64,000 nucleotides of DNA, taken from the NCBI GenBank assembly GCA_964421635.1, contig CAYQWZ010000002.1, forward strand, positions 1,749 to 65,748, read 5' to 3'. Below, in pieces: positions 6,847-12,420 of the stretch. Numbering within the stretch: the stretch's first letter is position 1; each line of letters begins with the position of its first letter. Both the position numbers and the translations under genes were made by a program. The notes beneath the pieces were generated by a model. It did not search any database, was not told the origin of the DNA, and was given only the letters and a program-made list of their open reading frames with translations. The DNA comes from an uncultured Candidatus Saccharibacteria bacterium. GTDB taxonomy: Bacteria; Patescibacteriota; UBA1384; CAILIB01; JAUSJZ01.

Positions 6847-9014
6847 TAATAGAGTCTAATGTGTAAACAAAATACAATCTGAATGTAGCGCGAAAAAAGT
6901 ATTTTTATTTTTTTCTCGCGCCAGACGGCGCGTTTTTGTTTCTCTAGGCATGAACATTAACAATTAATCTAATTAGTGGAATAATTATCACAATTATTCT
7001 TCCGATATAAAAAAGAAACGTAGAAACGCGTATTCATATTTACAAAAATGTAAGTCATTAATCATAATCTTCAAGCTAAGTTCGCTTAGCCTCAGAGATA
7101 GTGAGCCTCGCAAGAGGTCGAGTAAGAAATGACGTACGAGCACAAGGTGGATGCCTTGGTAGACACGACCGATGAAGGACGTCTGAGCCTGCGATAAGCT
7201 TCGGGGAGCTGGCAACAAAGCTATGATCCGGAGATTTCCGAATGGGGTAACCTATCTACTATATGTAGATGCTAGTGGGTGCGAGTCCCGCTAGACGAAG
7301 ACCTGGTGAACTGAAACATCTTATTAACCAGAGGAAAAGAAATAAATTAGATTCCGTTAGTAGTGGCGAGCGAACGCGGAACAGCCCAAACCACGTTTAT
7401 TAAATGTGGGGTTGTAGGGTAAAAGTGGAGATATCTCGTAGTGAAAAAATTAAGTTATATAACAGAAGGAACCTGGAATAGGACCGCCATAGAGGGTGAT
7501 AGCCCCGTATGTGAAATGTAACTTAACACTATGACTTTTAATCCTGAGTACCACGAAGCACGAGAAACTTTGTGGGAATCTGGGGCGATCACGCTCCAAG
7601 GCTAAATATAGTGTCTGACCGATAGTGAACAAGTACCGTGAGGGAAAGGTGAAAAGTACCCCGATGAGGGGAGTGAAATAGTATCCTGAAACCTTGATGC
7701 TTCCAAGCAAGTAGGAGCCGGCATGTCCGGTGACTGCGTGCCTTTTGTAGAATGCGCCACCGAGTTAGCCGTAGATTGCTGGTTAAGGCGATATTGCTGT
7801 AGCCATAGGGAAACCGAGTCTGAATAAGGCGAAATATAAGTAGTCTGCGCTAAACCCGAAACCGTGTGAGCTATCCATGACCAGGGTGAACCCTCTTTAA
7901 ACGGAGGGGGAGGCCCGAACCAGGAAGTGTTGCAATACTTTTGGATGAGTTGTGGATAGGGGTAAAATGCCTATCGAACACGGCAATAGCTGGTTCTCTT
8001 CGAAATATATTTAGGTATAGCCGTCAGTGTTCCTGCTTGAGGTAGAGCACTTAATGGTTGCTTTGGGTCTTCGGATCCGACACCAATAAAACTCCGAATT
8101 CAAGTTAGTCATAACTGACGAGTCAGACTGTGGGGGCTAAGCTCCATGGTCGAAAGGGAAAGAGCCCAGATCGCAAGCTAAGGTCCCTAACTAGTATCTC
8201 AGTGGAAAAGGATGTGTTATCTCCAATACAGCCAGGAGGTTGGCTTAGAAGCAGCCATTCCTTTAAAAAGTGCGTAAAAGCTTACTGGTCTAGCGGTTTA
8301 CCGCAAGAGATGATGCGCCGAAAATTTAACGGGGCTTAAGGTACTGGCCGAAGCTGCGAACTTGTTGAATTATTAAAATTTAGCGAGTGGTAGAAGAGCG
8401 TTCGTGTTGTTGTGAAGCAATACCTGTGAGGGGTTGTGGAACGGCACGAAGTGAGAATGGTGGCATGAGTAACGTTTCAGTCAGGTGAGAACCCTGACCT
8501 CCGAATATCCAAGGTTTCCTGGGCAACGAGAATCGACCCAGGGTTAGGCGGCCCTAAGGTGAACCCGAAAGGGGTAGCCGATGGACAGACGGTTAATATT
8601 CCGTCCCCTATTTTAGTGCAACTGTATGACGCATTTAGGTGGTAGCAAGTTCCAATGGGAATATCTTGCTGCGAACTGGGTGACTAGAAAAGTACAGGTT
8701 AAAGGCTAAAATGGACCGTACCGATAACCGACGCCGGTGGATAGGTCGAGTAGACCAAGGAGATCGGAAGAACCTTCGTTAAGGAACTCGGCAAAAAAGC
8801 GTCCGTAACTTCGGGATAAGGACTGCCAACCTAATTTATTAGGTAGGCCGCAGCGAAAGAATCCAGGCGACTGTTTAGCAAAAACACAGCTCCGTGCTAA
8901 CTCGTAAGAGGATGTATACGGAGTGACGCCTGCCCAATGCCAGAAGGTTAAGGGGAATGCTAACATTTTTTGAAGGCATGAACTGAAGCCCTGGTGAATG
9001 GCGGCGGTAACTAT

Positions 9015-9281
9015 TAAGGTTAGTAGTTATAAAATTTGGCCAAATGCTGGAAACTCTGAGTATCTTGCGCTACTATAGAATAAATACTAGTTCGGTATAT
9101 GTTCGGTAGTAAAAATGCGACAAGTGCAGACAATCAGCAGGAAAGACTCTCATATGAAAGAATCCTCAGAGACTATACGCCAAACTCCTGAATAGGAGAT
9201 GATATAGTCCGATCTGTATGGCGACATGCAGAGTTAGGCAGAAATGTCTAGCCCACTCAACTTGAGTGAGTAACAATAATG
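9015..9281 (+). mobile_element. Group-I-like intron 1 in 23S (ORF-less, ~267 nt), at about E. coli position 1917
   Basis: The exon sequence AACTAT|...|AACCGTCCTATGGTAGCG is interrupted. The 5' exon ends in U and the insert ends in G (the group I rule). Confidence 0.6.
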
Positions 9282-9315
9282 AACCGTCCTATGGTAGCGA
9301 AATTCCTTGTCGGGT

Positions 9316-9756
9316 AAATCAAGTCGGAAAAACTTGCCCGAAAGTTGCAGCAATGCAGCTTCAGTAAACTGGCTCAAAACGGTGAAGCCTAAAGTGGTTA
9401 ATCAAATTGTCATGCTGACGGTGCCACAATGGTAATACCGTGGGAAGTCTCTGCTTCGGCAGATGACCCCGTAACGACTGAGACGAAAGTCAAGACTCAC
9501 TACAGGTGGGTAATACGGCCAGCTCTTGCATAAAAAAGGATATATGAATTTTGCAGCTTACATTACCGGTTTCGTAGACGGAGAAGGGTGTTTCATAAAG
9601 AAACATTTGAATCCTCAAGTTTTAAAAGAAATCATTACGACTTCTTATAAAATGAACGATTCTGGGACAAGAAAGTTAAGCCAAGCAAAACTTCTAAGTA
9701 TCTTGTAAGATGAAGGTATAGTCTGATCCAACATGAAAGTGTTGTAACATTCAGTG
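9316..9756 (+). mobile_element. Group-I-like intron 2 in 23S (~441 nt), at about E. coli 1949-1951, carrying a LAGLIDADG remnant
   Basis: Exon CGGGT|...|AAGTTCCGACCCGCACGAATGGCG. It contains the shared core motif AATACCGTGGGAAGT...ACCCCGTAACGACTG closed by a UUCG-loop hairpin instead of an ORF. Confidence 0.6.
9526..9708 (+). pseudogene. Truncated LAGLIDADG homing endonuclease remnant (60 aa) inside intron 2
   Basis: A single LAGLIDADG motif (ITGFVDGEGCF). Too short to be a functional enzyme. Confidence 0.5.
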
Positions 9757-10304: not shown

Positions 10305-11226
10305 AATCCAAAGAAAGTCGAGAATAAAGTGACTCATAACGGTGGAGCCCTACTGTTTGTTCGGTAAATGTTTGGTATAATATACCAAATAATAGAATAA
10401 CAGGGGTAATACCGTGGGAAGTTACAAGACTGGCCATTATCAGCAGAATTGGTCTAAAATTAAAAGTTCGTTGTCGCTGAATAAACGACAGCAATCCTTA
10501 ATAATAGGCTCAATGCTTGGTGATGGCACTATGCGTATAGGCAAAAACGCAATTAATGCAAATTTCAAAGTGGAACAAGGCTTGAAACAAGAAGCTTATG
10601 TCTATTGGAAATATCGCATTTTGCATCCTTTTGTTTACACCGAACCAAAAATTAGCTATCGGTATGATAGTCAAGGGCAAAGATATCCAAAATCTTGGTG
10701 GTTTAGAACCATTAGATGCTCCCTTTTAACTGAAATATATAATCAGTTTTATACAGGAGAAGGATATCGAACAGGTAGAAAAATTGTACCTAATAATATA
10801 GTTAATTTTCTTGACCCATTAGCCTTATCAGTTTGGATAATGGATGACGGGTCATATAATAGAGGAAGAATAGATATTAGTACTTACTCATTTACTTTAG
10901 TGGAAGTAAAAATGTTAATAAGTGCAATATTTGAGAGATATGATATTCAAATGAATATGTATAAAGATCGTGATAAAGGCTATAGAATATATGCCAATCA
11001 AGATAATACTAAATCATTAATTGAAACAATCTCTCCGTTCATTATTCCTTCTATGAGGTATAAGGTGGGTTTTGTAACCCCGTAACGACTGGATCCTTAG
11101 TTCAGAAAGCTAAGGTGAAGATTCAGAATCTGAAACGATATATATTTCTGAATAACACGTCGCTGCTTGGACAACGCAGTCCAAGTAAAGGTATAGTCTG
11201 CACAGCTAGTAATAGTTGATAATGCG
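10305..11226 (+). mobile_element. Group-I-like intron 3 in 23S (~922 nt), at about E. coli 2504 in the peptidyl-transferase region
   Basis: Exon GGCACCTCGAT|...|GTCGGCTCATCGCATCC, with U before the intron and G at its end. Confidence 0.65.
10414..11085 (+). CDS. Double-motif LAGLIDADG homing endonuclease (223 aa, GTG start) encoded in intron 3
   Basis: Motifs LIIGSMLGDGTM and LSVWIMDDGSY. The ORF begins and ends inside the conserved intron core motifs. Confidence 0.85.
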   Translation: MGSYKTGHYQQNWSKIKSSLSLNKRQQSLIIGSMLGDGTMRIGKNAINANFKVEQGLKQEAYVYWKYRILHPFVYTEPKISYRYDSQGQRYPKSWWFRTIRCSLLTEIYNQFYTGEGYRTGRKIVPNNIVNFLDPLALSVWIMDDGSYNRGRIDISTYSFTLVEVKMLISAIFERYDIQMNMYKDRDKGYRIYANQDNTKSLIETISPFIIPSMRYKVGFVTP

Positions 11227-11387
11227 GTCGGCTCATCGCATCCTGGAGCTGGAGCAAGTTCCAAGGGTTTGGCTGTTCGCCAATTAAAGCGGTACGCGAG
11301 CTGGGTTCAGACCGTCGTGAGACAGGTCGGACTTAATCTTCTGTATCCGAGGAAGTTTGAGAGGGCTTCTCCCTAGTAAAACATTGC

Positions 11388-12152
11388 TACTTCACGAAGT
11401 AATTCGTGTTGACAATGCGGCTCATAACGGTGAAACCTTCATTATTGGCTGGTTAATACTAAGAACGTAACATAGTTTGGTCCAAAATTTGTTACAATGC
11501 TTGAGGACCAGAAAATATTAAGGCAATACCGTGGGAAGTCAATCTAATGTTAGATTTTCATATATAGCAGGTTTTCTTGATGGTGACGGGAGTTTAATGT
11601 TACAAATTAAACAACGTCCCAAAACAAAATCTGGGTATAGGTTTATGGCTACTATCTGTTTTTATCAAGATACGCGTCATGAATCTGGGCTTGTATGGAT
11701 CCAAAAAGTTCTAAAAATAGGTTATTTAAGTCGACGCAAAGATGGAATAACTGAATTAAGGATTAATGGGTTTACTCAAGTCAATGAGATATTAATAAAA
11801 ATATATCCATATATTCAATTTAAGAAAATTCAAGCAGAAGCATTAATTGAAGCAACGAATATCTTAAAAGATAAGAATGTAAATCAATTATGTGAAGCTG
11901 AGCTAGAAAGAATAGTAAAACTTATAATATTGTTAAGAAAACATAATTATAAGAGTAGCTATCGAAAAAGCTTGGTTAGTATAAGAAAAACATTAGGTTT
12001 GACCCCGTAACGACTGATCGAAAGAGAGAGTACATATTAATGTGCTAATACGCCGACTCCAATCAAAAAAGCTACAAAGATGGTTAATTAACCTAAATTT
12101 GAGTGATTGGATGAAAGTATAGTCTACGCCTTTAGAAATAAAGGATTTCGTG
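11388..12152 (+). mobile_element. Group-I-like intron 4 in 23S (~765 nt), inserted in the sarcin-ricin loop region (CCTAGT|ACGAGAGGACCGG)
   Basis: Exon continuity, a U...G boundary, and the same core motif family as introns 2 and 3 (CTCATAACGGTG..., AATACCGTGGGAAGT, ACCCCGTAACGACTG). Confidence 0.65.
11531..12010 (+). CDS. Single-motif LAGLIDADG homing endonuclease (159 aa, GTG start) encoded in intron 4
   Basis: Motif IAGFLDGDGSL. The size is I-CreI-like. Confidence 0.85.
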   Translation: MGSQSNVRFSYIAGFLDGDGSLMLQIKQRPKTKSGYRFMATICFYQDTRHESGLVWIQKVLKIGYLSRRKDGITELRINGFTQVNEILIKIYPYIQFKKIQAEALIEATNILKDKNVNQLCEAELERIVKLIILLRKHNYKSSYRKSLVSIRKTLGLTP

Positions 12153-12420
12153 ACGAGAGGACCGGGAGGAACGTGCCTCTGGTGTACCAGTTGTCATCCC
12201 AATGGCATCGCTGGGTAGCTACGCACGGCTAGATAAGCGCTGAAAGCATATAAGCGCGAAGCTAGCCTCAAGATTAGACTTCATAGATCCCTGGCAGACT
12301 ACCAGGTTGATAGGCACTAGGTGTAAGTGTGGTGACACACTCAGCCGTGGTGTACTAATAGATCATTTCATTTCTTACTCATAAAACTCACTAGTATTTA
12401 GTGAGCTCACTATCTCTGAG

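Follow-up and report, generated by a model that had tools for sequence, protein, structure and literature searches.

For the candidate phyla radiation (CPR) of bacteria, Tsurumaki et al. 2024 (PMC11270868) report group I introns with LAGLIDADG genes in 23S rRNA at positions 1917, 1931, 1952, 2593, 2604 and 2657. Group I introns make up 45% of the CPR 23S insertions considered there, they cluster around the peptidyl-transferase centre, and their open reading frames (ORFs) may be intact, decayed or absent, the cores being near-identical with or without an ORF. That most CPR rRNA insertions are introns was also predicted by setting genes against transcripts (Brown et al. 2015, as cited in PMC9297842). 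The subject here is a 64-kb window, meaning the whole stretch of contig CAYQWZ010000002.1 that was analysed, in which the 23S rRNA gene is very probably interrupted by four mobile group I introns (I1 to I4) at sites L1917, L1951, L2504 and L2656, the last of these within the sarcin-ricin loop (SRL).

The locus resembles the CPR insertion sequences 23IS6-14, as presented in PMC11270868, in having several introns clustered in the 3' half of 23S, in three of its sites (1917, 1952 or after 1951, and 2657 or after 2656, all named there), and in its LAGLIDADG_1 and LAGLIDADG_2 ORFs with ORF-bearing, ORF-less and degenerate versions. Its 2.4 kb of insert lies within the CPR range given there (mean 1.3 kb, maximum 5.75 kb). 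Unlike these sites, 2504 is not named in the accessible text of PMC11270868; introns are present there in the CPR metagenome-assembled genomes (MAGs) L031, L079 and L126 (L numbers denote the loci examined). Multiple LAGLIDADG-bearing group I introns at these 23S sites are already documented as typical of CPR, and that understanding is unchanged. The SRL intron is already catalogued and occurs in at least about 100 species; the L2504 intron is less common, but is found in other CPR genomes. A literature search for L2504, L2656 and L2657 as intron names returned nothing relevant. The window introns are new as sequences, with about 56% protein and 67-72% nucleotide identity to their nearest homologues among the loci examined. 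An earlier reading made from the sequence only had stressed that the insertion sites are among the most constrained of the ribosome, which is correct; such sites are expected targets of homing endonucleases, are already catalogued for CPR, and present no anomaly.

Outside CPR, bacterial large-subunit (LSU) introns are described at L1917, L1931, L1951 and L2593 (Haugen et al. 2007, PMC1995217). The window shares two insertion sites with Coxiella burnetii, in which an L1917/L1951 pair likewise flanks a 34-nucleotide (nt) exon; Cbu_L1917 and Cbu_L1951 self-splice (PMC4990558), and a LAGLIDADG ORF accompanies the L1951 element (PMC1995217). Coxiella differs in having no introns at 2504 or 2656 and in carrying an intervening sequence (IVS) in H45, whereas the L1951 ORF of the window is a 60-codon remnant. 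With the LSU introns of Thermotoga, Simkania, Synechococcus and organelles (PMC1995217) the window shares conserved sites, single-motif LAGLIDADG proteins and ORFs that extend into the core, and the P7.1/P7.2 extensions discussed below also occur in the L2593-type introns of that study; unlike those introns, however, the window has occupied 2504 and 2656, which are not among the study's four bacterial sites, and its ORFs lie in P6a and are bounded by core nucleotides. Archaeal IA3/IB4 rRNA introns, found at LSU 1923, 1931, 2500 and 2593 (Nawrocki et al. 2018, PMC6125680), are similar in their LAGLIDADG ORFs and in their small-celled, uncultured lineages, but the host domain differs and 2504 and 2656 are not in that study's site list. 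Against this background, the present locus is a fully delimited example of homing introns that have settled where ribosomal nucleotides are most conserved (helix 69, U2504/G2505 of the peptidyl-transferase loop, and the SRL).

The interrupted 23S rRNA gene

The region was aligned with E. coli K-12 rrlH by BLAST and MAFFT, and E. coli numbering is used throughout; an Rfam scan covered the whole 64-kb window. The resulting map is as follows.

7091-7105, + strand: precursor processing stem, 5' strand, a 15-nt perfect complement of 12406-12420
7120-12380, + strand: 23S rRNA gene, five exons and four introns (rrlH alignment; Rfam LSU_rRNA_bacteria, 1919.7 bits)
7120-9014, + strand: exon 1, E. coli ~1-1917; 3' end in helix 69, ...GGTAACTAT
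9015-9281, + strand: intron I1, 267 nt, L1917
9282-9315, + strand: exon 2, 34 nt, E. coli 1918-1951; 94% identity to E. coli 1918-1953
9316-9756, + strand: intron I2, 441 nt, L1951
9757-10304, + strand: exon 3, E. coli 1952-2504; 3' end ...GGCACCTCGAT, in the peptidyl-transferase centre
10305-11226, + strand: intron I3, 922 nt, L2504
11227-11377, + strand: exon 4, 151 nt, E. coli 2505-2656; 88% identity to E. coli 2505-2608
11378-12152, + strand: intron I4, 775 nt, L2656, in the sarcin-ricin loop
12153-12380, + strand: exon 5, E. coli 2657 to the 3' end; first letters ACGAGAGGACCGG
12406-12420, + strand: precursor processing stem, 3' strand, complement of 7091-7105

Collinearity with rrlH breaks four times: after U1917 in helix 69 (I1, AACTAT/AACCGTCC), after U1951 in the H71 region (I2, TCGGGT/AAGTTCCGACC), after U2504 in the peptidyl-transferase centre (I3, CCTCGAT/GTCGGCTC), and between U2656 and A2657 inside the SRL (I4, CCCTAGT/ACGAGAGGACCGG). 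These are exactly the four breaks in exon continuity that the sequence-only reading had named; its positions 1917, 2504 and SRL stand, its ~1950 is refined to 1951, and its SRL site is narrowed to U2656/A2657. The inserts sum to 2,405 nt, in agreement with its estimate of about 2.4 kb. When they are removed in silico, universal sequence returns at all four junctions (...GUAACUAU/AACC... at I1, ...GUCGGGU/AAGUUCCGACC... at I2, ...GGCACCUCGAU/GUCGGCUC... at I3 and ...CCUAGU/ACGAGAGGACCGG... at I4), and a mature 23S rRNA of about 2,856 nt results. Alignment alone leaves the I2 boundaries ambiguous by 2 nt (AA) and those of I4 by 1 nt (A); both are fixed by the rule of a U before the intron and a G at its end, together with P1 pairing. 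Independent support comes from the Rfam LSU model, in which the first two sites have inserts of 268 and 443 nt. The match to this model starts at 7124 and is reported to end at 10378, an artefact of a model that is unable to bridge I3 and I4. With splice sites this exact, the 23S gene can be annotated correctly and used in phylogeny.

The ends of the gene are set by helix 1, in which 7120-7132 pairs with 12368-12380 over a perfect 13 bp; the span of 7110-12370 proposed earlier is close to this. Outside helix 1, the 15-bp processing stem would be the site of RNase III action, judging from the usual architecture of rRNA operons. Exon 2 is just 34 nt long, and two ribozymes must fold and splice correctly around this very short exon. 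Apart from the introns, the 23S sequence has a 52-nt expansion near E. coli ~277 (window 7388-7473) and, relative to E. coli, deletions of 82 nt (1437-1518), 15 nt (1713-1727, the H63 tip) and 20 nt (2797-2816, H98).

Since rRNA genes are prone to chimeric assembly, such a mosaic could in principle be a metagenomic composite of rRNA fragments and introns from different organisms, and this has happened in a related contig, L003, where the 23S of another organism takes over at window position ~10195. However, independent assemblies from other samples carry the parts of the locus and agree with its order of exons and introns: L002 is 100% identical over 1-7468, L003 carries I1 and I2, L128 carries the I4 ORF, and L127 carries the I3 ORF, I4, the spacer and the downstream genes. 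The exons, moreover, combine into a single consistent 23S, and helix 1 and the processing stem each pair without a mismatch although their strands lie 5.3 kb apart; a chimeric origin is regarded as very improbable. Contig L003 (ERZ27248897 k141_478173) matches window 1206-10304, I1 and I2 included, at 98.5% identity, and its positions 1-720 hold the GC-richer, intron-less 23S 3' end and 5S gene of another organism, in which the SRL reads AGUACGAAAGGACC. It was considered as an allele that lacks the intron at U2504, and rejected: the divergence begins ~110 nt upstream of the site, the 23S there is foreign, and the assembly is chimeric.

Group I cores and intron families

A T precedes each insert and the last nucleotide of each is G (at 9281, 9756, 11226 and 12152), so that the group I rule of U before the 5' splice site and terminal G, first noticed in the sequence-only reading, holds for all four. 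Every insert has a P1 helix in which a U·G wobble marks the 5' splice site, the guide sequence lying 9-21 nt inside the intron. In I1 the pairing is AACUAU/GUAGUU (exon AACTAT, 9009-9014, with guide GTAGTT, 9023-9028; wobble U9014·G9023), in I2 UCGGGU/GCCCGA (TCGGGT, 9310-9315, with GCCCGA, 9336-9341), in I3 CUCGAU/GUCGAG (CTCGAT, 10299-10304, with GTCGAG, 10317-10322), and in I4 UAGU/GCUA (TAGT, 11374-11377, with GCTA, 11386-11389, plus two A-U pairs of the intron). The 82 SRL-site and 6 L2504 family members compared all have this U·G. The Rfam model Intron_gpI (RF00028, gathering score 50) recognises I1 with 69.8 bits, and alignment to it supplies the core evidence for the helices of I1 and I2; in I2 it places a decayed ORF in the P8 loop, P6 being a short hairpin. 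I1 has no ORF and is homologous to ORF-bearing L1917 introns in CPR loci, for example L021, L053 and L052.

The core strings ACCGTGGGAAG ... CCGTAACGACT ... TATAGTC are common to I2, I3 and I4. The gap from ACCGTGGGAAG to CCGTAACGACT is 21 nt in I2, where it is the short P6 hairpin, and 658 nt in I3 and 466 nt in I4, both with an ORF. A profile hidden Markov model was built from 81 foreign SRL-site introns, with the window excluded, and run on the whole 64-kb window; it matched the following segments and gave no further significant match in the window.

9366-9499: I2 (E 4e-14)
10324-10423: I3, 5' half (E 6e-9)
11075-11225: I3, 3' half (E 2e-13)
11370-11548: I4, 5' half (E 9e-41)
11993-12158: I4, 3' half (E 3e-18)

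Both I3 (CCTTAG...CTAAGG and ATTCAGAA...TTCTGAAT) and I4 (GTACAT...ATGTGC) have hairpins at the P7.1/P7.2 position, between P7 and the 3' strand of P3, and these covary in the L2504 alignment; I1 is without them. Hairpins of this kind are typical of subgroup IA. I2, I3 and I4 appear to represent one IA-like core type with P7.1/P7.2, and I1 a different type.

The core of I3 comprises P3-P9 and the P7.1/P7.2 hairpins, with the 658-nt ORF-bearing insert in the P6a loop. Introns at the same site, with or without an ORF, were found in 10 other loci; those among the CPR loci examined include L031 (Campbellbacteria, 302 nt), L079 (Gottesmanbacteria, 296 nt) and L126 (894 nt, with ORF), and L2504 is rarer in these loci than L2500 (4 vs ~18). 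Searching metagenomes for the 15-nt junction pattern GGCACCTCGATAAWC proved unspecific, the 120 matches listed being mostly chance occurrences in protein genes, with 7 true L2504 introns among them. The family has two forms, an ORF-less one of 252-302 nt and an ORF-bearing one of 894-979 nt with a P6a insert of 657-660 nt. When six ORF-deleted members were folded together with RNAalifold, 56 pairs were obtained, 26 of them with compensatory changes. A named structure of 55 pairs (P1, P3-P6, the P7 pseudoknot, P8 and P9) was then evaluated: 97.5% of its cells are standard pairs, and 25 of the 55 pairs have changed on both sides. None of 500 column shuffles reached any of the five measures, and shifting the 3' partners by 1-3 columns reduced pairing to 35-40%. 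The L031 locus has a further group I intron at 1077-1358 (- strand; Rfam 26 bits, E 4e-4), located between those at L2504 and in the SRL, which shows how densely such genes are colonised by introns.

I4 has P2-P9, with a 466-nt ORF insert in the P6a loop. Its family was collected by scanning one genome per species (GTDB representatives) with the pattern TATAGTC, 15-45 nt, ACGAGAGGACCGG, which gave at least 120 matches, overwhelmingly in CPR/Patescibacteria MAGs; of the two matches with other labels that were inspected, L066 is a chance match in a Eubacterium transposase gene and L065 is a genuine SRL intron. Clean SRL introns between ...YTAGT and ACGAGAGG are present in at least 99 other loci, nearly all CPR. 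Among the matches listed, intron lengths are bimodal (280-440 nt or 735-890 nt, the 775 nt of I4 being typical), the P6 insert is either 22-33 nt or ~450-490 nt (466 nt, as in I4, being the modal value), and 97 of 100 introns contain both ACCGTGGGAAG and CCGTAACGACT. The I4 DNA is 67-72% identical to dozens of SRL-site introns. RNAalifold on 82 ORF-deleted SRL cores returned P1, a P2 hairpin with a GNRA-type loop, P3-P5, P6/P6a, P8 and a P9 hairpin, with 3-6 Watson-Crick or wobble pair types per position in P2, P3, P5, P6a, P8 and P9. The ORF-less SRL intron of L063 (WWE3) is recognised by Rfam Intron_gpI (E 5e-7). On this comparative evidence, I3 and I4 can be placed in covariation-supported, same-site group I families.

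Several observations weigh against the group I reading. I2 falls just below the RF00028 gathering score (47.2 bits vs 50; E 7e-10), I3 alone gives a partial 3' match of 16.8 bits, and I4 alone gives no match to RF00028; even the ORF-less L2504 homologue of L031 is matched only in part (23.8 bits). The assignment of I3 and I4 is therefore supported by covariation within their families and by the resemblance of their cores to that of I2, and not by a curated model. In the families P4 and P7 do not vary, which is consistent with the structure but uninformative for covariation, and the invariant P7 strands of the SRL family (GACU/AGUC) speak neither for nor against P7. The P1 of I4 has just four exon pairs, and the splicing of the four introns is itself predicted from sequence. 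I3 and I4 were missed by the Rfam model because of the large ORFs in P6, and RF00028 is known to be insensitive to archaeal IA3/IB4 introns, for which subgroup models are needed (PMC6125680). The Rfam group I and 23S models, by which the sequence-only reading had proposed to place the splice sites, accordingly went part of the way: I1 was recovered and I2 came near threshold, whereas I3 and I4 were not recovered and the LSU model stopped short. The P1 U·G, the terminal G, the Rfam results for I1 and I2, the family covariation and the LAGLIDADG ORFs nonetheless bear out the identification of the inserts as group I introns.

The commonest bacterial 23S insertions are fragmenting IVSs, and these are also found in CPR (PMC11270868), so that the inserts might instead be cut out by RNase III without religation, leaving the 23S rRNA in fragments. 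Known IVSs, however, are simple extended stems that replace the tips of variable helices (H9, H25, H45), whereas the inserts described here sit in universally conserved loops (H69, the peptidyl-transferase centre and the SRL) and have a P1 with U·G, a terminal G, a covarying P3-P9 core and homing-endonuclease genes. A break inside the SRL is the product of alpha-sarcin and inactivates ribosomes. No IVS-type features were found in the four inserts, and an IVS origin is very improbable. Nor did the Rfam scans detect any group II family at gathering or E-value thresholds, and the intron ORFs encode LAGLIDADG proteins, not a reverse transcriptase. The two classes that the sequence-only reading had held against its own proposal, group II introns and IVSs, are therefore both set aside on the lack of a Rfam group II signal, the LAGLIDADG ORFs, the conserved-loop positions and the ribozyme cores.

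It could also be that at least one intron has become incompetent for splicing, through decay of its ribozyme or dependence on a protein, and that this rRNA gene is non-functional or only partly functional. In its favour, I2 is below the Rfam gathering score and has a decayed ORF, I4 has only a short P1, and maturase activity is known for some LAGLIDADG proteins. Against it, the exons are intact and have the universal consensus at every junction, I2-I4 hold all of the core strings conserved across ~100 family members, and the Rfam scan found no second 23S gene in the 64-kb window. CPR bacteria usually carry one rRNA copy (PMC11270868), and with a single 23S copy a dead intron at the peptidyl-transferase centre or the SRL would probably be lethal. 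Loss of splicing is considered improbable. Under the favoured reading of four active group I introns, splicing must be efficient, because the interrupted nucleotides are indispensable and CPR genomes usually have but one rRNA copy; no ribosome could presumably be made in this cell unless the ribozymes had spliced.

In the mechanism proposed, a single precursor would be transcribed through all four introns, and each intron would fold into a group I core (P3-P9), P1 being formed by its guide sequence and the last 4-6 exon nucleotides, with the splice-site U in a wobble pair with G. The first attack, after this U, would come from exogenous guanosine, and the freed 3'-OH of the exon would then attack after the terminal G of the intron, ligating the exons. 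Ligation would restore helix 69, the H71 region, the peptidyl-transferase loop and the SRL.

Homing-endonuclease reading frames

Two intact reading frames and one remnant were found in the introns.

9526-9708, + strand: LAGLIDADG remnant in I2, 60 codons; only the first motif, YITGFVDGEGCF, is left
10414-11085, + strand: two-motif LAGLIDADG homing endonuclease, I-SceI-like, in I3, 223 aa
11531-12010, + strand: single-motif LAGLIDADG homing endonuclease, I-MsoI/I-CvuI/I-CreI type, in I4, 159 aa

The I3 protein matches Pfam LAGLIDADG_2 with 144 bits (cutoff 25; E 4e-42), keeps both acidic motif residues (...MLGDGT... and ...IMDDGS...), aligns with I-SceI in the PDB over ~200 residues (E 1e-12), and shares 56% identity with the protein encoded in the L2504 intron of L126. 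The I4 protein matches LAGLIDADG_1 (44.6 bits, cutoff 23.1) with the motif YIAGFLDGDGS; over its whole single-motif domain it matches I-MsoI (E 8e-24), I-CvuI (2e-15) and I-CreI (~1e-7) in the PDB, and it is 56.5% identical to the SRL-intron ORF of L098. By analogy with these enzymes it presumably acts as a homodimer. The I2 remnant scores 16.2 bits with LAGLIDADG_1 (E 0.02), below the cutoff of 23.1, and at its present length would be too short for a functional enzyme.

I-CreI, I-MsoI and I-CvuI (chloroplast L2593) and I-SceI (the omega intron of yeast mitochondrial LSU) are likewise encoded by LSU group I introns. The window proteins differ from them in insertion site and are of low identity to them; because the insertion sites differ, their DNA targets must differ as well. 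The candidate targets in intron-less 23S DNA are GGCACCTCGATGTCGGCTCATC for the 223-aa I3 protein and CTCCCTAGTACGAGAGGACCGG for the 159-aa I4 protein, which makes the two enzymes candidate meganucleases with new 23S targets. By analogy, each would cut intron-less 23S DNA at its own insertion site, and repair would then copy the intron in (homing). Activity has been demonstrated for I-ShaI, a CPR relative from a different insertion site (PMC11270868). The four elements are at different stages of the homing-intron cycle of gain, decay and loss, since ORFs are intact in I3 and I4, decayed in I2 and absent in I1; three stages of the cycle are therefore seen side by side in one gene.

The intact ORFs of I3 and I4 are bounded by nucleotides of the intron core itself, at these positions.

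10411-10421: ORF start of I3, at ACCGUGGGAAG
11080-11090: ORF stop of I3, at CCGUAACGACU
11528-11538: ORF start of I4, at ACCGUGGGAAG
12005-12015: ORF stop of I4, at CCGUAACGACU

Both open at a GUG inside the conserved core string ACCGUGGGAAG, which runs from the 3' strand of P4 into P6, and both close at the UAA of J6/7, within CCGUAACGACU, so that both proteins end in ...TP. This frame is shared although the two proteins belong to different LAGLIDADG families, and the core GUG-to-UAA frame is also found in 53 of the 67 ORF-bearing SRL introns from other genomes among the matches listed. Other rRNA introns are known whose ORFs overlap parts of the core (PMC1995217); frames that open and close at a GUG and a UAA which are themselves conserved core nucleotides were not found described in the literature searched. 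If the overlap were functional, translation and ribozyme folding would be mutually exclusive, because a ribosome starting on the core GUG must melt P4-P6, and the arrangement might then be a built-in switch between rRNA splicing and synthesis of the homing enzyme. This is speculation, and unlikely.

Flanking genes and host

A 5S gene follows the 23S gene.

13045-13161, + strand: 5S rRNA gene (Rfam 5S_rRNA, 90 bits)

In the rest of the window the Rfam scan found three tRNAs elsewhere, and no 16S rRNA gene in the 64 kb, that is, none for at least 7 kb upstream or 51 kb downstream of 23S-5S; the 23S-5S pair is probably the only 23S-5S locus of this uncultured bacterium from a metagenome. A thioredoxin-reductase gene (5800-6765, opposite strand) precedes the 23S gene. 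Between 23S and 5S lies a GC-rich cassette (12450-13040; GC 0.61 vs 0.40 for the window), also present in the independent assembly L127, with a promoter-like site at 12467-12495 and a strong terminator hairpin at 12955-12977. Its ORF (12504-12905, 133 aa) has no Pfam match and a codon-position-3 GC of 0.66, and the only match among 5.8 billion proteins was its own cluster representative, a 121-aa form. A good sigma-70-like promoter (TTGACA-17-TAAATT, 13007-13035) stands directly before the 5S gene, and the arrangement suggests that 5S may be transcribed separately from 23S.

The close relatives of the introns and endonucleases all come from CPR MAGs. The 23S of the window is without the H63 tip and H98, like the CPR 23S rRNAs of PMC9297842, in which loss of H63 and H98 is described. 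Together with the lack of a nearby 16S gene, a diversity-generating retroelement (DGR) and many window proteins without Pfam domains, these features make it probable that the host belongs to the CPR/Patescibacteria. A host outside the CPR would be a surprise, and one considered less likely than the translation-folding switch described above. An organellar origin was considered and rejected, since the window encodes TrxB, Fic, the DGR reverse transcriptase, a Na+/H+ exchanger and glycosyltransferases. The reverse transcriptase (Pfam RVT_1) of the DGR is at 439-1563. In the overlapping contig L002 the DGR (5906-9956) includes a bAvd gene and a 751-aa candidate target of Lcl_C type, just beyond the start of the window. 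In L078, a reverse transcriptase 43.6% identical to that of the window DGR is encoded within 8 kb of a 23S gene.

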